From positions 1-38,614 of the forward strand of contig JBBDJZ010000008.1 in the NCBI GenBank assembly GCA_040879625.1: a DNA stretch of 38,614 bases. Direction: 5' to 3'. Positions 3,085-22,709 of this stretch are shown piece by piece (the stretch's first letter is position 1; each line of letters opens with the position of its first letter). Under the pieces are notes generated by a model. It was given only the letters and a program-made list of their open reading frames with translations, was not told the DNA's origin and searched no databases. The DNA is from Minisyncoccota bacterium. Lineage in GTDB: Bacteria > Patescibacteriota > Minisyncoccia > Phycocordibacterales > JAXHMZ01. A program made the position numbers and the translations under genes.

Positions 3085-4167
3085 TTACTTTTGATTTTCT
3101 AGATATGTAAACACACTTGCGTTAGCAAGCTGTGTTTCCACGTATATTTCTGCTCGTTCTTTATCAGCGGTCGGGTTGTGTTCTAAGAGATGAGAAACTT
3201 GATGGTCAACCTCCTCTTTCTTTGGGGTAAGATTTTCAACTGTCGCAATCTTATTAAGAATAAGTTGCATTTTAGCCCTGTTTTCTGCGTGGGGCCTCCA
3301 TTCTTTTAGCAGTTCTTCTACCGTTTTTCCCGCCTGAGTAAGATACTCTTCTAGCTTTAATCCTGACGCTGAAACATCTGCAGTAAACTGCGCCATCATA
3401 CTTTGAAGTTCGCTCTCAATAATCATGGTTGGAAGGGTAATTGTTGATTCCTCAAGAATTTTTTCCATAAGAGCCAAGCGGTGTTTTTCGTTAGCTTGGT
3501 TTTCTTTGTGTTTTTTCAAATCTTCTCGAACTGTTTGTGTGAATTCCTCGACCGTTTTCATTGAAGAAATTTTTTGCACCTTTTCGTCATCAAGAGGGGA
3601 TGGCTCATCAGTCTCTTTTGGTTCCTCGTTCTTGTTCTCGCTTGTTTCTTTTAAAGCCTCGGTTTCCTCTCCTTGATTTTCACGCCTATCAAGTTCTTTT
3701 CTTACTTCAAGTAGTGCGCGCCGAACCTCACCTTCGTCAAGTATCACCTCGCCTTTTGTACGGTTCAGTTCTTGCGCAATTTTTTTATAGTCTCCGATTT
3801 CTACTGCGGGCATGAGGGGCGTTTGAATCCTGAATTCAACAGGGTTGCCGGGCGCAATTTTGGTAAAACGTACCTCCGGTCGTCCAAATATTTCAAGCTT
3901 TTTTTCACGAATAATCGAGGGGTAAAGCTCGTTTAGTGTGCGGGTTGCAACTTCTTCTAGAAGCGCTGTTTCTGAAACGTGCTTCTTGATGACCGCTTCT
4001 GGTATCGAGCCTTTTCGAAAACCATCAAGAGAGAGGTTTTCAGAGAAGAACTGCAAAGCAGAATCCTTGTGCTTCTCGAGGGTGTCAAGTGAAAGGGTCC
4101 CTGTTATTACCGCTTCGTTATGCTCATTTGTTTCTACGGTTATGTTGTTCTCTGTAATGATTGACAT
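3085..4167 (-). CDS. tig: Trigger factor lacking the central FKBP-type PPIase domain
   Basis: The N-terminal ribosome-binding signature GFRKGSIP and a C-terminal TF domain are present. An acidic linker sits where the PPIase domain is expected. Start chosen at ATG 4167 (MSIITENN...). The tig-clpP adjacency is conserved. Confidence 0.8.
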
Positions 4168-5394: not shown

Positions 5395-6735
5395 TTACTC
5401 AGGTTTGTTCTCTGGGTCGCTCTCGTGATCTGTTTTCTCTGTCTCATCAGGAGTAACTATCGTTTCCGCTGAATCGCTTTCTTTGTCTACTGCCTCAATG
5501 AAAGCATGTTCACCATCATCCTCAAGAGCTTCTTTTTCTACTGGGGTTGTACCACTGTCGTTTGCAGGTACTGCTGTTTCCACCTCTTCTTGTCCATCGT
5601 CACCCACTGAATGAATTTCAATTTTCCATCCAGTAAGTTTTGCTGCAAGTCGAACGTTTTGGCCGCCCTTCCCAATAGCAAGCGACTGCTGATCCGGGGA
5701 CACTTCTACAAATGCTTTATTTTCTTCCTCGTTTATTTCGACCGAGAGAACGGAAGCTGGGGAGAGTGCGTCTTCAATAAATTTGTGTAAACTTTCTGAC
5801 CACTCAACAATATCTATTTTTTCACCTCCTAGTTCAGACATAACCGTAGAGACGCGCACCCCTCGTTGACCCACAAGGGATCCAACAGGATCAACGTTTG
5901 GGTCGTTAGAAAAAACAGCAATTTTTGAACGTGAGCCTGGCTCTCGTGCAATTGCGGTTATTTCAACAGTACCCGTTGCTACTTCAGGGGATTCTGCTTT
6001 AAAAAGTTCTCTTAAAAAGTCGGGGTGAGAACGGGACAAGCGCAGGAAAACACCTCGCCCGCCTTCTTCTACAACGTAGAGGAGTGCGCGTATTCGTTCA
6101 CCTTGTCGGAAGCGTTCTCCTGGAATCTGATCATCCCATCCAATAATTCCTACAGTTCGTCCCAAATCAACAAAAACTGAACCCCTCTCAACTCGTTGAA
6201 CAGTGCCGGAGACAATAGTTCCTTGCTTCTCTCCAAAATCTCCCATAACGGCGACCTTTTCTGCTTCGCGAATTTTCTGAATAATAACTTGCTTTGCAGT
6301 TTGAGCAGCAATCCGTCCATAGTCATCTTTTTTCTCCAGAGGGAAAACAATTTCTTCATCTAACTCTGCGTCTTTTTTTATTTTTCGAGCATCCTCAATA
6401 AAAATGTGGTGCTCAGGGTTGTATCTGCTCCGCAAGTCTTCCTCACCAGCTTCGTTTTTAGGAAGTTCTTCTTCCGCTTCGGTGGGCTCACCCTCTTCGT
6501 CCGTTTCAACGATTCGCACTGTTGAGTCGTCAACAACAATCTTTACTTGAAAAAACTCAACGTCCCCGGCATCAAGGTTGAACTGTGCTCGAACAATTTG
6601 TCCACGTTTTCCGTATTCTTTTTTGTAAGCAGTTGCAAGGGCAAATTCAATCGCCTCTATAACGCTCGCTCGTGGAATTCCTCGCTCGTCTTCCAATTCA
6701 CCAAGAACTGAATTGATTACTTTTAGATCAAACAT
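5395..6735 (-). CDS. nusA: Transcription termination/antitermination factor NusA with an acidic C-terminal tail
   Basis: Contains the N-terminal domain, an S1 domain (GTIVSGTVQRVERGSVFVDLG) and two KH domains (GQRGVRV, GKGGQNVRLA). Confidence 0.93.
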   Translation of the reverse strand: MFDLKVINSVLGELEDERGIPRASVIEAIEFALATAYKKEYGKRGQIVRAQFNLDAGDVEFFQVKIVVDDSTVRIVETDEEGEPTEAEEELPKNEAGEEDLRSRYNPEHHIFIEDARKIKKDAELDEEIVFPLEKKDDYGRIAAQTAKQVIIQKIREAEKVAVMGDFGEKQGTIVSGTVQRVERGSVFVDLGRTVGIIGWDDQIPGERFRQGERIRALLYVVEEGGRGVFLRLSRSHPDFLRELFKAESPEVATGTVEITAIAREPGSRSKIAVFSNDPNVDPVGSLVGQRGVRVSTVMSELGGEKIDIVEWSESLHKFIEDALSPASVLSVEINEEENKAFVEVSPDQQSLAIGKGGQNVRLAAKLTGWKIEIHSVGDDGQEEVETAVPANDSGTTPVEKEALEDDGEHAFIEAVDKESDSAETIVTPDETEKTDHESDPENKPE

Positions 6736-6761
6736 ATGTGATTTTTTGATTTTTAATAAAG

Positions 6762-6783
6762 AAAAAGCCCGTTATAGACGGGT
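6762..6783 (-). promoter_or_regulatory. Terminator-like hairpin inside the nusA 5' leader (possible attenuator)
   Basis: On the minus strand, CCCGU-CUAUA-ACGGG is followed by CUUUUUCUUU, about 25 nt upstream of the nusA ATG. Confidence 0.35.
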
Positions 6784-6819
6784 TACAATGCATACTATTC
6801 ATTCATTTCTGATACTTTT

Positions 6820-6847
6820 AGTATAATCAATATTCCAGGTCTGTCAA
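6820..6847 (-). promoter_or_regulatory. nusA promoter TTGACA-N16-TATACT
   Basis: The -35 is the reverse complement of 6842-6847 and the -10 is the reverse complement of 6820-6825. Confidence 0.55.
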
Positions 6848-6883
6848 TCGTGCACTGTTACATAACTGAAACGCCTCTATTTC

Positions 6884-6901
6884 AAAAAAAAAAGGGGGGG
6901 G
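6884..6901. repeat. Homopolymer pair A10 G8 between the divergent nusA and pilB promoters
   Basis: Direct count gives A at 6884-6893 and G at 6894-6901. Confidence 0.95.
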
Positions 6902-6927
6902 AAGTACACAGTGTGTAGGGAAAATTT

Positions 6928-6936
6928 TGGTATACT
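6928..6936 (+). promoter_or_regulatory. Extended -10 element TGgTATACT for the pilus operon
   Basis: TGGTATACT at 6928-6936 lies 11 nt before the ATG at 6948. No SD is present. Confidence 0.5.
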
Positions 6937-6947
6937 ATGAAGACGAT

Positions 6948-8699
6948 ATGCACCTTACCTCAGATCAGTTAAAAAACTTTCTTAAAGACACTCACATTGT
7001 TACTCCTCGCGACCTTGACGAAGCCGAAGGTGTCGCGCGAAAAAAGTCGATTTCACTCGGAGCTGCGCTTCTTGATACCGGACTTATTACGGAAGAAGAT
7101 TTACGACGGGTAAAGGCGAACATTCTAGGTATTTCTTTTGTAAATCTAGAAAATCAAGTAATTGAGAAAGAGATTTTGCGTCTCATTCCCGAGCCGATTG
7201 CTCGTACACATAATATTGTTTCCTTTAAAAAAACAGATACGACGCTTGAGGTTGCAATGCTTGACGTAGACGACCTGGCTGCAATTGGTTTTATAAAAAA
7301 GAAGACGGGCCTTAAAATTTTACCTCGCATAACCAATGCGCCTTCAATTAAATATGCACTTCAGCTGTATCAAAAGGATCTTAAAACAGAGTTCGGAGAT
7401 ATCTTAGAAAAAGAAGCCTCCCAGCTTAAAACTATTTCTCAGGAGGAGGGCTCGGAAATGAGCGAGGGAGATCTTAAAAAGCTTGCAGAAGAGCTACCTG
7501 TTGTGCGCGTTGTTGAAACACTCTTGAAGCATGCAATCATTCAGGGGGCATCAGACATTCATATAGAACCAATGGAAACGCAGCTTTTGGTCCGCTATAG
7601 AATTGATGGACTGTTGCACGACGCAATGGTGTTGCCTAAAACAGTCGCTCCAAACATAACTGCACGTATAAAGGTTCTTTCAAACCTGAAGCTTGACGAA
7701 AAGCGCCTTCCTCAAGACGGAAGATTTAAAGTAGAGAACGATACCGAAAAAGTAAGTTTTCGAGTTTCAATCCTACCCACGTCGTTTGGTGAGAAGACGG
7801 TCATGCGTCTTCTTCGCGAAAGCTCTGAAGGATTTACACTTGAAGGACTTGGGTTTCATGGTGAATCGCTTGAGCGGATTTATGCAGCAACAAAGCAGAC
7901 CACGGGGCTTATTTTGACCACTGGACCAACCGGGTCTGGTAAAACAACGACGCTCTATACGGTCCTCGATATTTTAAACACGCCTGAGGTTAATATTTCA
8001 ACCGTTGAAGATCCGGTTGAGTATCAAATGCCTCGGATTAATCAGACGCAAGTGCGTCCAGACATCGGTTTTACGTTTAGTGTAGGATTGCGAACGCTCG
8101 TTCGTCAAGATCCAGATATTATTATGGTTGGAGAGATTCGTGACACAGAAACTGCTAATCTTGCAGTAAATGCGTCCCTGACTGGACACCTTGTCCTCTC
8201 GACGCTTCACACGAACTCAGCAGCTGGAGCAATTCCGCGTTTGGTCGATATGAAAATTGAGCCATTTTTGATTGTTTCAACCATAAAGGTGATAATTGGT
8301 CAGCGACTCGTCCGTCGTCTGTGCGATAACAAAGAAAAGTATTTTTTGACTTCTGAGGAAATCATGAAGCTTGGAGAAACCGTTGACCTCGATCGTATTC
8401 TCACATTTTTAAAGGCAGAGCGCGCCGTTGGAGAAGATGCCAGTTGGGAGAAAATTCCGTTTTATCGACCAAAAGAAAGTAAGGACTGTGAAGACGGATA
8501 TGGGGGGCGAGTTGGTATTCACGAGGTTCTTCATGTTAATTCAGCAATTCGAGAGCTTGTCATGAAAGAAGCCACATCAGAAGATATAGAGGCCCAGGCA
8601 AAAAAGGACGGTATGATGACCATGATTGAAGATGGAATCTTTAAGGCAGTACAGGGACTTACAACCATAGAGGAGGTGCTCCGTGTTATCTCAGAATAA
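6948..8699 (+). CDS. pilB: Type IV pilus / T2SS assembly ATPase (PilB/GspE family)
   Basis: Has a GSPII_E N-terminal-like domain, Walker A GPTGSGKTTT and the Asp/His boxes. The TTG start in the ORF track (6927) overlaps the -10, so ATG 6948 is preferred. Confidence 0.9.
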   Translation: MHLTSDQLKNFLKDTHIVTPRDLDEAEGVARKKSISLGAALLDTGLITEEDLRRVKANILGISFVNLENQVIEKEILRLIPEPIARTHNIVSFKKTDTTLEVAMLDVDDLAAIGFIKKKTGLKILPRITNAPSIKYALQLYQKDLKTEFGDILEKEASQLKTISQEEGSEMSEGDLKKLAEELPVVRVVETLLKHAIIQGASDIHIEPMETQLLVRYRIDGLLHDAMVLPKTVAPNITARIKVLSNLKLDEKRLPQDGRFKVENDTEKVSFRVSILPTSFGEKTVMRLLRESSEGFTLEGLGFHGESLERIYAATKQTTGLILTTGPTGSGKTTTLYTVLDILNTPEVNISTVEDPVEYQMPRINQTQVRPDIGFTFSVGLRTLVRQDPDIIMVGEIRDTETANLAVNASLTGHLVLSTLHTNSAAGAIPRLVDMKIEPFLIVSTIKVIIGQRLVRRLCDNKEKYFLTSEEIMKLGETVDLDRILTFLKAERAVGEDASWEKIPFYRPKESKDCEDGYGGRVGIHEVLHVNSAIRELVMKEATSEDIEAQAKKDGMMTMIEDGIFKAVQGLTTIEEVLRVISE

Positions 8700-15313: not shown

Positions 15314-17026
15314 ATGAAAGCTCCTCTTTCTTATTTGCAAAAAAAAACAAAAAAGCTTGCTCCCCACCACCTCTCAGGTTATTCAGATATTGCGCGCACG
15401 CTGCTGATTCATCGCGGTGTGTATACCGACGAAGAAGCGAAGAAAATTCTTGAAGGTGACTATGTTGCGGGTCTTCATGATCCTTTTCTTATGAAAGGTA
15501 TGCAGAAAGCAGTTGACCGCATCGTATCAGCCCTAAAAAAAGAAGAGCACGTGGCAATTTTTTCTGATTATGATGCAGACGGTGTTCCTGGCGGCGTTCT
15601 TTTGCGTTCTTTTTTTGACCGAGTGGGTTTTAAACATATAACTTCGTATATCCCGCATCGAGGAATTGAAGGGTTTGGTTTAAATAAAGAAGCCGTAGAA
15701 ACGCTTTCTAAAAAAGGAGTAACGCTCATGATTACCATTGATTGCGGAATAACTGATACGGACGAAGTCTTGCATGCAAAAGAACTTGGAATTGATGTGA
15801 TTATTACCGATCACCACCTACCTCCTGACCCATTGCCGGAAGCACATGTAATTCTTGATCCAAAGCAAGCAGATTGCGCCTATCCTTTTAAAGAACTCTG
15901 TGGTGCCGGCGTGGCGTACAAGCTTGTTCAGGCGCTCATGACCCACAGAGACGTTCTGTTTCCCGAAGGTCATGAAAAGTGGCTTTTAGATCTTGTTGGA
16001 ATTGCAACCCTTGCAGATATGGTTCCTCTTGTTGGCGAAAATAGAATCTTTGCGCGATATGGATTGGTTGTTTTACAAAAGGGGCGACGGCCTGGACTCA
16101 GAGAGCTCCTCAAACAAGCAAAGGTTGATTATCGCTTCGTTAATGAGGAAGACGTTACGTTTACGGTTGCTCCGAGAATAAATGCAGCAAGTAGGATGGC
16201 ACATCCTGACATTGCGTTCGCACTTCTTTTTTCAAGCTCACGCAAAGAGGCTCTGCGACGAGCGGTAGAGTTAGAGGAGATAAACAAAGAAAGAAAAACG
16301 TTGGTAGCGGGTATTGTCCGTGAAGTGAAAAAGAAAGTTGCGAAACGTGTGCTCGGCCTTGTGATTGTTGTGGGAGATCCACATTGGAGACCGGGAATAC
16401 TTGGACTCATAGCAAGCGCACTTGTTGATACGTTCGGGAAAACAGTATTTGTGTGGGGCAGGGAGGGGGACGGGCACCTTAAAGGTTCGGTTCGCTCAGA
16501 TGGGGTTATGAATGTTGTTGAGCTGATGCGGGCACTTCCCGAGGATTCGTTTGTTGGGTTTGGTGGACATGAACGTTCTGCTGGTTTCTCAATCGAACTA
16601 GACAAGGTTGATTTGCTTGAGGAACTTCTCAACGCACAGGCTAACGGCTCTGTTTTATCTGAACCTCATACTGAAACAGCAAAAACATACGATAGTGCAA
16701 TTCTCGCTAAAGAGCTCGAAGGAGAACTTTTTGAAGATGTACTCGCGCTTGCTCCTTTTGGAATTGGGTTTGAAAAACCCCTGTTTAAAATTGAAAAAGC
16801 GCGCGTTGTTTCACTTAAAGAGTTTGGAAAAGGAAAGAATCATTTAGAAGTAGTTGTTGAAGGAAAGGGAAGTGTCCAATTTAAATCAATAGGATTTTTT
16901 ATGACACGCAAACATTTTGAGAAAGAAATTGCTCCCGGAGAAGACATTACGCTCTATGGATCACTTGAAAAAAGTTATTACACCAGAAGTCCTGAGTATA
17001 GAATTCGTATTGAGCACATAGAGTAG
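15314..17026 (+). CDS. recJ: Single-stranded-DNA-specific exonuclease RecJ (DHH/DHHA1)
   Basis: Motifs FSDYDADGV, DCG and ITDHH. The start is 15305 or 15314. Confidence 0.9.
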   Translation: MKAPLSYLQKKTKKLAPHHLSGYSDIARTLLIHRGVYTDEEAKKILEGDYVAGLHDPFLMKGMQKAVDRIVSALKKEEHVAIFSDYDADGVPGGVLLRSFFDRVGFKHITSYIPHRGIEGFGLNKEAVETLSKKGVTLMITIDCGITDTDEVLHAKELGIDVIITDHHLPPDPLPEAHVILDPKQADCAYPFKELCGAGVAYKLVQALMTHRDVLFPEGHEKWLLDLVGIATLADMVPLVGENRIFARYGLVVLQKGRRPGLRELLKQAKVDYRFVNEEDVTFTVAPRINAASRMAHPDIAFALLFSSSRKEALRRAVELEEINKERKTLVAGIVREVKKKVAKRVLGLVIVVGDPHWRPGILGLIASALVDTFGKTVFVWGREGDGHLKGSVRSDGVMNVVELMRALPEDSFVGFGGHERSAGFSIELDKVDLLEELLNAQANGSVLSEPHTETAKTYDSAILAKELEGELFEDVLALAPFGIGFEKPLFKIEKARVVSLKEFGKGKNHLEVVVEGKGSVQFKSIGFFMTRKHFEKEIAPGEDITLYGSLEKSYYTRSPEYRIRIEHIE

Positions 17027-17030
17027 TGGC

Positions 17031-17066
17031 AAAAAAGTGAGGCAGCGTTTTCCTTAGAAAACGTGC
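17031..17066 (-). terminator. Terminator of GC-rich unit A (may also serve recJ)
   Basis: On the minus strand, GCACGUUUUC-UAAG-GAAAACG(C)UGC is followed by CUCACUUUUUUG. Confidence 0.5.
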
Positions 17067-17085
17067 CCCACATCGGTATTCAGTA

Positions 17086-17328
17086 CTACCGGTTGCTTCT
17101 CTGCTCCACTCGCGCCCTCCTCCGTTCAAGGGTGTCTTGACTACGCTCGTCACGCTCGTCGAAGAATGAACGATCCGGCATCCCAAACAGTGCAGGACGT
17201 CTATCCTGTTCGCTCGCTATCTCAGCGAGCGAACCACGTCCCTGCATTCGAGCAAACTGTTCACGCAGACCTTCGTCGTCTCCCAGACTTACAAGGATTC
17301 CGTTTGTCACGACGAGCCTTGTGCACAT
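17086..17328 (-). CDS. Hypothetical 80-aa ORF in GC-rich unit A (coding status uncertain)
   Basis: GGGAG lies 6 nt upstream of ATG-TGC. The body contains long perfect hairpins and I recognise no family. Confidence 0.3.
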   Translation of the reverse strand: MCTRLVVTNGILVSLGDDEGLREQFARMQGRGSLAEIASEQDRRPALFGMPDRSFFDERDERSQDTLERRRARVEQRSNR

Positions 17329-17456
17329 AATTGCTCCCTATAAGGGTTCACGGTGAGCATCACCGTGAGGCGGGCGCGACACTAAAGTGGTGTTCGCACC
17401 TCACTCTGTTGCTGGTACTCTTTCGAGTATATGAATGTCCCTCCCTCTCCCTTCTG
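17329..17456 (-). ncRNA. Conserved structured 5' element, copy A
   Basis: Block 17347-17456 aligns with 17882-17991. It contains a GAAA-tetraloop hairpin, an ACAC/GUGU hairpin and a 9-bp UCACGGUGA/UCACCGUGA hairpin. Confidence 0.45.
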
Positions 17457-17461
17457 ATTTT

Positions 17462-17489
17462 AGTATAAAAATATTTGAGCAACTGTCAA
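17462..17489 (-). promoter_or_regulatory. Promoter of unit A, TTGACA-N16-TATACT
   Basis: The -35 is the reverse complement of 17484-17489 and the -10 is the reverse complement of 17462-17467. Confidence 0.6.
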
Positions 17490-17571
17490 ACTGCTCATAC
17501 TGCTTAACTTTTTTAAAACTCTATACATAATGAGCCCGGCGAAGCGCGTGCGCGTCGCCGGGTAGTTGGTG

Positions 17572-17862
17572 CTAGCTCATTTGGATGGGGTCGAACCTGC
17601 CAGCCTCCTTGAGGTCGAGGGGTGGGAGAATTCTTTGTCCCGTTCGCTTCCAAGGGCATTCGCCACGAGGTGCGTTGTTGTCGAATTGGACCATTTCGAA
17701 GCCGTCCGCTGTGCGGACGAATCTCTCGTTCTGTCCAACGAGAACACTGTCGACAACCTCACCACTGCTATCAATGATATCGACAACTGTTACTGTCGTC
17801 GAAGCAGCGTGGGCGCCATCCCTGTAAACAATTCCCTCTTGAGCCTCGCTTGGTTTACACAT
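17572..17862 (-). CDS. Hypothetical 96-aa ORF in GC-rich unit B (coding status uncertain)
   Basis: The start is taken at ATG-TGT 17862. That position corresponds to the unit A start, and GGGAGAG lies upstream. The longer ORF to 17919 would run into the conserved element. Confidence 0.3.
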   Translation of the reverse strand: MCKPSEAQEGIVYRDGAHAASTTVTVVDIIDSSGEVVDSVLVGQNERFVRTADGFEMVQFDNNAPRGECPWKRTGQRILPPLDLKEAGRFDPIQMS

Positions 17863-17991
17863 CAGCAGTCTCTCCCAAGACTTCACGGTGAATATGACCG
17901 TGAGGTGGGCGCAACACAAGTTTGTGTAGCACCCTACTCTCTGTAGTTACACTCTTTCGAGTAAATGAATGTGCCGCCCCTCTCCCTTCTG
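17863..17991 (-). ncRNA. Conserved structured 5' element, copy B
   Basis: Paralog of 17329-17456 (block 17882-17991). Confidence 0.45.
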
Positions 17992-17996
17992 GGGCA

Positions 17997-18024
17997 AGTA
18001 TATGATTTTATGTGTTCTTGTCAA
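17997..18024 (-). promoter_or_regulatory. Promoter of unit B, TTGACA-N16-TATACT
   Basis: The -35 is the reverse complement of 18019-18024 and the -10 is the reverse complement of 17997-18002. Confidence 0.6.
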
Positions 18025-18057
18025 TTTCTGCGTATCTATACACGTATGCGATGAAAT

Positions 18058-18083
18058 AAAAAAGCGGGTCGTTGTGTACCCGC
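18058..18083 (-). terminator. Intrinsic terminator of the 18094-18366 ORF
   Basis: On the minus strand, GCGGGU-ACACAACG-ACCCGC is followed by UUUUUUAUUU. Confidence 0.65.
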
Positions 18084-18093
18084 TATCGTTCGG

Positions 18094-18366
18094 TTATGTT
18101 TTGTGAGACACAGCTCTCTGTTTAAGGGCTCTGATTTTCTCTTGATGGCGATCCTGGAGGATGCCAAGTGTGCGCCGCTTCTTTCTGAGTTCGTCCACCT
18201 GATATCGCGAAAGTGACTTTTGGCTTTGAAACGTCAATTTAATGCTACGAAGTTCTTTCTGAAACCACTCTACTTTTGTTTGGTGAAACTTAATTTCTGC
18301 CTGAATTTCTTCACGCGTCATCCCTCGGGGACGCGTGAAGACGGGTGGCTGGCTCATCTCACACAT
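18094..18366 (-). CDS. Hypothetical small coiled-coil-like basic protein
   Basis: 90 aa, or 87 aa from the second ATG at 18357 (GAAGGG lies 9 nt upstream of it). It has its own terminator. I recognise no family. Confidence 0.45.
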   Translation of the reverse strand: MCEMSQPPVFTRPRGMTREEIQAEIKFHQTKVEWFQKELRSIKLTFQSQKSLSRYQVDELRKKRRTLGILQDRHQEKIRALKQRAVSHKT

Positions 18367-18454
18367 CCCTTCTTTGAAAGAATCATCTCTTTTGTATCAC
18401 ATTACTCATTGCTGTCAATATGCTCACCGTAGTGGTTCGTATATACTAGAAAGT

Positions 18455-19171
18455 ATGGAAATCAACGTGTTTACTGACGGTGCTTCAAAAGGAAATCCTG
18501 GTCCAGGGGGGTGGGGGGCTGTGATTCACCTAGGGGAATCAGTTGTCGAACTGGGAGGAGGTGAGGCCGAGACAACGAACAACCGAATGGAACTTACCGC
18601 TGCGATTAACGCTTTAAGATACATACAAAACTCGCGTGAAAACATAACCGTTTTTACTGATTCTTCGTATCTCATACAAGGAATAACGAAATGGATATAT
18701 GGTTGGGAAAAAAATAACTGGAAGACAAAAACAAAAGCTGATGTACTTAATGTTGATCTATGGAAAGAACTTCGTACCGGAGTTGTAGATAAAAACTTAA
18801 CCTGGCGCTACGTCCCAGGTCATCAGGACGTCACGGGTAATGAAAGAGCGAATGACATTGCCGAGGATTTTGCGCTTCAAAAAAAACCAGCACTGTATAA
18901 AGGTGATGCATCTCTCCACACCCTGAGACTTTTTTCCGAAGGAATGCCTCTTAGTAGAAATGGAAAAGCTGCCTCTCTTAAAAAAGATTCGTCGACAAAA
19001 AGTAGAAAGACGGGAAGTGCCTATTCTTACGTTTCACTTCTGAACGGGAAAATAGAAATACACAAAAGTTGGGACGAGTGTAAAAAACGAGTAAGCGGAA
19101 AACCTGCGCGCTTTAAGAAGGCGATGTCACAAGCCGAAGAGCGCATGATTGTGGACGAGCTTAAACAATAG
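18455..19171 (+). CDS. rnhA: Ribonuclease HI with a C-terminal hybrid-binding (Cauli_VI/HBD-like) domain
   Basis: RNase H motifs VFTDGAS, NNRMEL, VFTDSSY and GNERANDIA. The C-terminal YSYV..SWDECKKRVSGKPARFKKA matches the RNase H1 HBD signature (W-N/D-E-C...FP-A-ARFKKF). The start at ATG 18455 lies 7 nt after TATACT. Confidence 0.85.
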   Translation: MEINVFTDGASKGNPGPGGWGAVIHLGESVVELGGGEAETTNNRMELTAAINALRYIQNSRENITVFTDSSYLIQGITKWIYGWEKNNWKTKTKADVLNVDLWKELRTGVVDKNLTWRYVPGHQDVTGNERANDIAEDFALQKKPALYKGDASLHTLRLFSEGMPLSRNGKAASLKKDSSTKSRKTGSAYSYVSLLNGKIEIHKSWDECKKRVSGKPARFKKAMSQAEERMIVDELKQ

Positions 19172-22445: not shown

Positions 22446-22709
22446 ATGCTTGTCAGCAGGCGTGACGACGGTGCAAACAGGGCCAGTAGGGCTCGCAGGA
22501 AGAGCAGGGGCTCGGCAGCGCGGGATGCGCAACTCGAACTCGAACTCGAGGACGAACTCCAAGCTCTGCAGGGGGAACTCCAAGCTCTGCAGGACGAAAT
22601 CTACGACTGCTGGGCCTTCCTAGAGTTTCCTCTCGTGTGCGACTTAGACATGGGCGAGGTGCCTCCTGTCGGGTGTTACTGGGACGACGCAACCTCGGCC
22701 GACTACTAA
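22446..22709 (+). CDS. Hypothetical 87-aa protein: Arg-rich N-terminus, heptad-repeat middle, Cys/aromatic C-terminus
   Basis: Strong SD AAGGAGG lies 4 nt upstream. The patch is GC-rich and contains in-frame DNA tandem repeats. I recognise no family. Confidence 0.5.
   Translation: MLVSRRDDGANRASRARRKSRGSAARDAQLELELEDELQALQGELQALQDEIYDCWAFLEFPLVCDLDMGEVPPVGCYWDDATSADY

Follow-up and report, generated by a model that had tools for sequence, protein, structure and literature searches.

The 5' stabilisers of Gram-positive bacteria, such as the STAB-SD of Bacillus thuringiensis cry3A, hold a 30S ribosomal subunit at a sequence resembling a Shine-Dalgarno (SD) site at the 5' end of the mRNA, and the bound subunit blocks RNase J1 (PMC4113751). 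In the tisB mRNA of Escherichia coli, a standby site lies about 100 nt upstream of a sequestered ribosome-binding site (RBS) (PMC7708055, PMC6690012), and unstructured 5' tails are known to override RBS structure (PMC5934652). Here we describe a structured leader, reminiscent of both of these arrangements, that precedes two unrelated small genes in contig JBBDJZ010000008.1 (assembly GCA_040879625.1) of an uncultivated, ultrasmall Minisyncoccota bacterium, positions 1 to 38,614 of which form the stretch analysed here and are hereafter called the window. To our knowledge very little is known about gene regulation in Patescibacteria, also termed the candidate phyla radiation (CPR), and in the literature that we searched no description of a natural cis-regulatory RNA from this group was found. 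The element is a previously undescribed, covariation-supported structured 5' leader of a Paceibacterota clade.

The leader occurs twice in the gap between recJ and rnhA, where two minus-strand units (B, followed downstream by A) lie head-to-tail in tandem at positions 17031-18024, each comprising a near-consensus promoter, a leader of about 128 nt, a small open reading frame (ORF) and a terminator hairpin. This layout had been put forward in a sequence-only reading of the same DNA, and its component parts could be located as described. The patch is more GC-rich than its surroundings, with values of 0.52-0.56 over 17000-17999 as against about 0.36-0.45 in the flanks. Both promoters are of the TTGACA-N16-TATACT type, of which there are four full instances in the whole 38.6 kb, and each matches the consensus at 11 of 12 positions. 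That of unit B occupies 17997..18024 on the minus strand (-35 TTGACA at 18024-18019, a 16-nt spacer and -10 TATACT at 18002-17997), and that of unit A 17462..17489 on the same strand (-35 TTGACA at 17489-17484, a 16-nt spacer and -10 TATACT at 17467-17462). More generally, seven promoter-like sites are found in the 1.6-kb region, compared with 1.7 expected. Transcription would start near A17990 in unit B, going by the usual 7-nt distance to the -10 box, and near A17455 in unit A by the same promoter geometry. The block shared by the two units, which had been aligned by hand at roughly three-quarters identity, is 78.6% identical over 112 nt by blastn and about 79% identical overall, with column identity reaching 82% when the promoters are included; this pair is the sole long direct repeat of such kind within the window. 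Both leaders are more stably folded than their own shuffles (z of -2.9 and -4.0). The view that the RNA lies outside the known families also held: a search of Rfam 15 (4227 families) with the window and eight related loci gave no match at the gathering threshold, and at E-values up to 10 only three weak plus-strand matches to eukaryotic miRNA and snoRNA models, all far below threshold, were obtained in the region 16900-18200.

Since neither ORF had a family and both were nearly devoid of protein matches, relatives were reached by synteny, by comparing contigs along a graded series of RecJ proteins, and additionally by looking up a B-type relative, which yielded L029-L031. The related loci or contigs are designated L003 to L031, with L003/L004, L007/L008 and L029-L031 each grouped as a lineage. 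In all relatives the layout consists of a HIT-family gene, recJ, one to three small minus-strand genes and rnhA-comEC-sodA; the same HIT, recJ, rnhA, comEC and sodA genes neighbour the units in the window, which contains no tRNA. The supposition that further copies of the leader exist was borne out: at least seven related Paceibacterota lineages have it at this same position, which brings the number of distinct copies to 11, with two copies each in L003/L004, L007/L008 and L029-L031 and one each in L006, L019 and L020. The RecJ proteins of these leader-bearing relatives are 62-84% identical, the L029 lineage coming in addition. A covariance model built from nine copies scored every copy at 74-140 bits with nothing elsewhere near these values, and it recovered exactly two copies in the window, even with the filters off. 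The promoter hexamers are near-invariant across the nine alignable units, except in L020 (TTGACC/TATAAA), while the spacers vary; that of unit A is identical in unit A of L029. In L018 and L021 the orthologous gene is present and the leader is unalignable, with only the general architecture retained. In L018 we also observed that the approximately 350 nt between the B-type ORF and recJ (6714-7065) contain no called gene and harbor long inverted repeats, for example GTAAAATAGCGTGAGCAATAC ... GTATTGTGAGCGTTATTTTAC.

Searches beyond these lineages were uniformly negative. A degenerate pattern fitted to all seven close copies picked out nine loci among the GTDB species representatives and seven among the JGI contigs, all of which, bar the known contig, belong to GC-rich genomes and fail the covariance model. 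One candidate, L023, scored 20.8 bits at a GC content of 0.67 and was regarded as a chance match. Three patterns run against IMG/VR viral contigs produced at most a chance match, and the whole patch found no match by blastn in phage and plasmid collections; a mobile-element origin is therefore not indicated. The leader is thus confined to one narrow clade, in which it is inherited vertically at a single locus.

Consensus folding with RNAalifold gave four helices, P2 to P5, from an alignment of nine distinct leader copies and again from one of eleven. With nine copies, 94.7% of the cells were paired and 13 of the 25 pairs had changed on both sides, and with eleven copies 15 pairs displayed compensatory changes. 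In both tests none of 500 shuffles matched the observed covariation values, and controls in which the partner strand was slid attained a pairing of only 28-55%. The alignments thereby show the predicted helices P2-P5 to be maintained by compensatory substitutions among the homologous copies.

The first of these, P2, has the consensus of a GNRA-capped hairpin, CUC-GAAA-GAG, and is seen as UACUC-GAAA-GAGUG at 17950..17963 in unit B and as UACUC-GAAA-GAGUA at 17416..17429 in unit A (here and below, all leader features lie on the minus strand). It is preceded by a conserved junction, ACAUUCAU, at 17972-17965 and 17438-17431, respectively. Across the eleven copies P2 is 93.9% paired with both-side changes in two of its three pairs, and it is swapped for other hairpins in L003A, L006, L019 and L020. 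P3 is a long bulged stem-loop with the consensus GUG(A)GGUGCG-ACAC / GUGU-YGCGCC-CRC, the bracketed A being bulged, and spans 17905..17937 in unit B (GUAGGGUGCUACAC / GUGUUGCGCCCAC) and 17370..17404 in unit A (GUG(A)GGUGCGAACAC / GUGUCGCGCC-CGC). Seven of its 14 pairs are compensated, including changes from G-C to U-A in L006 and L019 and from G-C to A-U in L029, and 90.9% of its cells are paired. P4 takes the form UCACGGU-(7-nt loop)-ACCGUGA at 17883..17903 in unit B and UCACGGUGA-UGC-UCACCGUGA at 17348..17368 in unit A. It is 98.7% paired and has four of its seven pairs compensated: its 5' strand reads UCACGGU, UCGUGGU, UUGCGGU, UCGCGGU or UCGCACC, each with a matching partner, as in the pairings UCACGGU/ACCGUGA, UCGUGGU/ACCACGA, UUGCGGU/ACCGCGA and UCGCGGU/ACCGCGA. 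Finally, P5 exists in two forms, GUCUU-GGGA-GAGAC in B-type copies (17868..17881 in unit B) and CCCU-UAU-AGGG in A-type copies (CCCU-UAU-AGGG(AG) at 17334..17346 in unit A), with compensation in two of the three scored pairs.

The purine run, the GAAA hairpin, the ACAC/GUGU hairpin and the UCACGGU/ACCGUGA hairpin of the sequence-only reading are all part of this picture. Its longer helix GUGAGGUG/CGCCUCAC is in the wrong register, because the P3 compensations become mismatches there and the helix overlaps with P4; the comparative data favour GUG(A)GGUGCG/YGCGCC-CRC, which is continuous with the ACAC/GUGU hairpin. A pairing of the 5' purine tract with the pyrimidine strand of P3 was likewise discarded as uncompensated, since it is the 5' strand of P3 that compensates the changes in that strand. 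No covarying partner of the purine tract was found in the leader alignment. A candidate closing helix, P1, would join an ACAU upstream of P2 to the start-codon AUGU; it is 80% paired with no both-side change among the eleven copies, so that we treat it as a possible element only.

The distribution of the two units shows that unit B is ancestral, as it is found in every lineage. Unit A, known only from the window, L003/L004, L005, L007/L008 and L029-L031, arose later, through copying of the promoter and leader to a position in front of another ORF, given its restriction to the closest subclade. In L029-L031 the A and B leaders are identical at 123 of 124 positions over the stretch that runs from the -10 box through P4 (in L029 the leaders compared lie at 2700-2835 and 3224-3359, and the same is seen in L030 and L031), and the two units have unrelated promoter spacers, P5 hairpins and ORFs. 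This sharply bounded identity between unrelated flanks, set against about 79% for the pair in the window, indicates gene conversion between the tandem leaders; the A and B copies of one genome are therefore not independent samples. In close pairs the nucleotide identity of the leader (0.77-0.82) is shown by these comparisons to be about equal to that of recJ (0.72-0.78) and above that of the downstream ORFs (0.53-0.68).

The feature that most readily links the leader to the ribosome is the purine tract at its start, which promoter geometry places at the predicted +1 to +14 of each leader as AGAAGGGAGAGGG. In unit B it is AGAAGGGAGAGGGG (17977..17990) and in unit A AGAAGGGAGAGGGAGGG (17439..17455). 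All pairing energies were computed with an assumed canonical 3' tail of the 16S rRNA. With this tail the tracts form 9-11 contiguous pairs at -13 to -18.5 kcal/mol, the values being -14.5 kcal/mol with nine contiguous pairs for unit B and -14.1 kcal/mol for unit A. By comparison, the gene-proximal SD reaches about -7 to -10 kcal/mol in most copies (-7.3 in unit B), roughly half the strength of the tract, and the other genes have a median of -2.9. The variable positions of the tract are occupied by A or G facing a U of the assumed tail, and thus the pairing with 16S rRNA would be retained. No ATG, GTG or TTG is present at initiation distance after the tract, making it a 'super-SD' with no start codon to serve. 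The tract occurs in all the relatives and is the single sequence feature that is still kept in L018 and L021.

In every copy an SD and an ATG are found at the junction of leader and ORF, including the GGGAG box and ATG-TGY noted earlier in the two units, and it is P5 that contains this SD, in its loop and 3' strand (the purines GGGAGAG in unit B). When 1000 structures were sampled for each of the 11 copies, the SD core was fully open in a median of 5% (6% in unit B and 2% in unit A). Taken with the covariation of P5, the RBS is sequestered in structure, as in standby mRNAs. The translational setting of the organism appears to be rather different, as most long ORFs in the window have no SD and are preceded by a -10-like hexamer (TATACT, TAGAAT, TACAAT or CATACT) ending 6-11 nt before the ATG, with examples at 18455 (rnhA, where the start reads TATACT-AGAAAGT-ATG), 24830, 37124, 12786, 11452 and 29095. 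Judging from these signals, translation in this organism seems to depend largely on leaderless mRNAs, a background that would render two leaders of about 128 nt exceptional.

No terminator-like site was found within either leader (17868-17990 and 17334-17455), and P4 is followed by AAGUCUU or AACCCUU and not by a U-run. This points away from attenuation and to control at translation or stability. A type I toxin-antitoxin arrangement, in which a small hydrophobic toxin of usually under 60 aa goes with a conserved antisense RNA, does not fit either, as the products of 80 and 96 aa are hydrophilic and there is no conserved antisense promoter. The only antisense promoter-like site, TTGTCA-N16-CATAAT on the plus strand at 17304-17331 of the window (10 of 12 matches), points into leader A, and its -10 corresponds to the ATTATG start region read in reverse complement. 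This site is probably fortuitous, since unit B lacks it and the relatives do not preserve its -10.

Several of these properties recall described systems. As in STAB-SD elements, a near-perfect SD-like sequence, complementary to the assumed 16S tail and not used for initiation, is positioned near the inferred 5' end, far from the start and with no start codon of its own. Unlike them, the leader adds a covarying four-helix domain and an occluded second SD, and its host is a CPR bacterium whose genes appear mostly leaderless. As in standby mRNAs, such as the MS2 coat gene and the +42 mRNA of tisB, a small gene has a highly structured leader in which about 100 nt separate a candidate upstream 30S-binding region from a sequestered RBS. 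The tisB standby site, however, is unstructured, S1-dependent and not an SD mimic, and TisB is a small hydrophobic toxin under the control of an antisense RNA, unlike the hydrophilic ORF-A and ORF-B products. With translational and orphan riboswitches the leader shares multiple covarying helices, a sequestered SD and more than one downstream gene; it differs from them in its occurrence in one narrow clade, its fast-evolving junctions, the want of a supported alternative pairing and its association with genes of no known function.

We therefore favour, tentatively and as something short of probable, the reading that the element is a lineage-specific structured cis-acting 5' untranslated region in which the 5' tract docks a 30S subunit and P5 occludes the SD; its most likely role is control of translation or of mRNA stability. 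In such a mechanism the tract would dock the 30S subunit at the 5' end of the mRNA, where it could shield the transcript from 5'-end-dependent decay in the manner of STAB-SD. The docked subunit could also wait in standby until P5, and possibly P1, opens, whereupon initiation would take place about 110 nt downstream. The stack of P3, P4 and P5 might tune the frequency of opening, and would be the likely target of a modulating trans factor or condition. Several observations weigh against this proposal. The +1, and with it the 5'-terminal position of the tract, derives from promoter geometry, and the pairing of the tract depends on a 16S tail that is canonical and assumed. Among the sampled structures a fully open tract is seen in a median of 14%, with a spread of 0-98% between copies. 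P5 is short (three scored pairs, four to six possible) and weak in A-type copies, and in copy B of L029 the SD is open in 53% of samples. Moreover, the P3 and P4 stems are more conserved in sequence than base pairing demands, which suits a specific binding partner better than a passive standby or stability element.

This last point leads to the possibility that the leader is an operator through which a trans-acting protein would repress or activate the translation of both genes, which we consider unlikely but deserving of attention. The candidate protein is encoded immediately upstream of unit B by a third small gene that does not have the leader (18058..18418, minus strand). A promoter of its own (TTGACA at 18418-18413) precedes a short leader, in which there is a strong SD, AAGAAGGGA (18374-18366; pairing energy -14.3 kcal/mol), and this is followed by an ORF ending at 18094 and a terminator at 18084-18058. 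The encoded basic coiled-coil protein is listed with 90 aa, counted from 18366; the ATG at 18357 is the likely start and would give 87 aa. An ORF-A or ORF-B product acting on its own mRNA is also conceivable. The stem sequences GGUGCG/YGCGCC and UCRYGGU/ACCRYGA are those conserved beyond pairing needs. The third gene is syntenic in L003, L006, L007, L019, L020 and L029, the three small genes occur together in seven lineages, and L018 and L021, which are without the upstream gene, are also without a P3/P4-type leader. Gene conversion, too, keeps the leaders matched, as expected of a common operator. Nevertheless, the co-occurrence is drawn from few lineages and is confounded by phylogeny, and no RNA-binding domain is recognisable in the upstream protein: it belongs to no family in Pfam, PADLOC or PHROGs, with only sub-threshold PHROG and Pfam hits.

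Somewhat less likely is a metabolite or ion riboswitch, in which the junction of P2 to P5 would be the aptamer and a ligand would shift the balance between P5 (possibly also P1) and an open RBS. Covarying helices joined by linkers of 1-2 nt, with the junctions ACAUUCAU, AGAGUG and GAA conserved in the close copies, would be in keeping with an aptamer, as would an SD inside a hairpin, a leader that matches no known RNA family, and the placement of one leader before two unrelated genes, as in riboswitch regulons. Yet the range is very narrow, with nothing beyond the known lineage in the GTDB representatives, IMG/VR or the JGI contigs. The junctions and P2 are replaced or 20-25 nt longer in L006, L019 and L020, unlike aptamer cores, and in L018 and L021 the leader cannot be aligned in spite of the orthologous gene. 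Furthermore, no alternative pairing is compensated, neither P1 nor any involving the tract, and the regulated genes are orphans and therefore offer no metabolic clue. Of the sequence-only proposal of a riboswitch-like leader duplicated before two small genes, the shared cis-acting leader accordingly stands, on the grounds of conservation, covariation, the lack of an Rfam match and the unrelated, real ORFs, while its riboswitch-like nature was not established: the junctions and P2 drift fast, the genes are orphans, and there is no basis for naming a ligand.

An RNA thermometer, or a constitutive structural leader in which P5 melts and the other hairpins protect the mRNA, is improbable in our estimation. 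P5 is indeed short, modestly stable and placed over the SD, and nothing points to a ligand; but known thermometers do not require three additional conserved covarying helices, the sequence conservation of P3 and P4 together with gene conversion suggests a more specific constraint, and the organisms were recovered from mixed environmental metagenomes, where a temperature cue is not obviously needed.

The other possibility raised in the sequence-only reading, that the units are paralogous non-coding RNAs (ncRNAs) of about 400-450 nt with constant 5' and variable 3' domains, could appeal to the GC-rich region, the several open frames in unit B and the orphan status of both ORFs in protein databases, and is rendered very improbable by the bodies themselves, in which frames are kept in orthologs with a dN/dS of 0.17-0.41 (0.21 for ORF-B against L007 and 0.17-0.41 for ORF-A), third-position changes are in excess, protein motifs are conserved and an 18-nt repeat has expanded in frame in L004. 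This coding constraint implies that the units are mRNAs and not long ncRNAs, and ORF-A and ORF-B are, on this comparative evidence, real protein-coding genes for orphan small proteins.

ORF-B (17572..17862, minus strand; 96 aa, MCKPSEAQEGIVYRD...) is identical to the annotated hypothetical protein WDZ74_00425 of a Candidatus Paceibacterota metagenome-assembled genome. The B proteins of all lineages form one fast-evolving alignable family with the motifs G-x-V-Y-R, P-W and L-x-x-V-G. ORF-A (17086..17328, minus strand; 80 aa, MCTRLVVTNG...) belongs to a family with 30 invariant columns across three orthologs. The two had been described as unrelated, in agreement with which no homology between the A and B families was detected (hhalign probability 2.7%). 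Neither falls in a family of Pfam, PADLOC or PHROGs. Among 5.8 billion proteins ORF-B matches itself alone and ORF-A a 97%-identical fragment from a near-identical strain, and an exhaustive phmmer search of 1.84 billion representatives returned only four real relatives of ORF-B, its other hits being repetitive giant proteins. Profile searches of the PDB with the ORF products gave nothing. AlphaFold predicts, with low confidence, an all-beta fold for ORF-B and yields a poor model for ORF-A (pLDDT 58 and 61, pTM 0.51 and 0.21), and Foldseek comparison of these models with the PDB gave nothing below E = 1.

Some irregularities were observed among the B-type genes of the relatives. The ORFs at L003 8256-8606 and L004 3419-3787, on otherwise near-identical contigs, differ by one extra copy of the in-frame 18-nt repeat GTTACTGCTGACGAAGGA (VTADEG), giving products of 116 and 122 aa as called. 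The 119-aa protein P0127 (L029 2773-3132) is called from a point 24 codons ahead of the conserved MCSK start; this extension appears to be a gene-calling artefact because it is the translation of leader helices P4-P5, and the 120-aa call in L019 may be a similar one. A leader peptide or in-frame N-terminal extension was rejected as a candidate feature, as it is not conserved.

Both units end in the 3' hairpins noted earlier. In unit B a terminator-like hairpin, CCCGGCGA...UCGCCGGG, is followed by a weak U-rich tail (17535..17562, minus strand), and the hairpin is kept with compensating changes in L003, L006, L007, L019 and L029. In unit A an intrinsic terminator, the long hairpin GUGGGGCACGUUUUC-UAAG-GAAAACGCUGCCUCAC followed by UUUUUU (17031..17071, minus strand), is kept in L003, L007 and L029, where its stem carries compensatory changes. 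Elsewhere in the window we observed, at 11-47 and 122-158, a 37-nt direct repeat whose copies are 111 nt apart and 70% identical, as well as a tandem duplication of 21 nt (GGACGAACTCCAAGCTCTGCAGG...) that occupies 22550-22597 and is probably within a gene.

We consider it unlikely, though worth bearing in mind, that the leader is a genuine sensor, be it a new riboswitch class or the operator of an adjacent small RNA-binding regulator. Were this true, the three small genes that separate recJ from rnhA would form a self-contained module of orphan small proteins, switched after transcription and specific to these episymbiotic ultrasmall bacteria, and the 5' super-SD would be an unusual expression platform amid leaderless translation. 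The immediate impact of the leader is limited by its narrow distribution. Even so, it supplies a clean case of gene conversion restricted to a functional RNA segment, and the orphan small proteins behind it are driven by the strongest promoters of the window. The leader may thus serve as a handle on the roles of these conserved small proteins, on 5' SD-like stabiliser and standby mechanisms beyond Firmicutes and Proteobacteria, and on the use of SD-dependent initiation in organisms that otherwise seem mostly leaderless.

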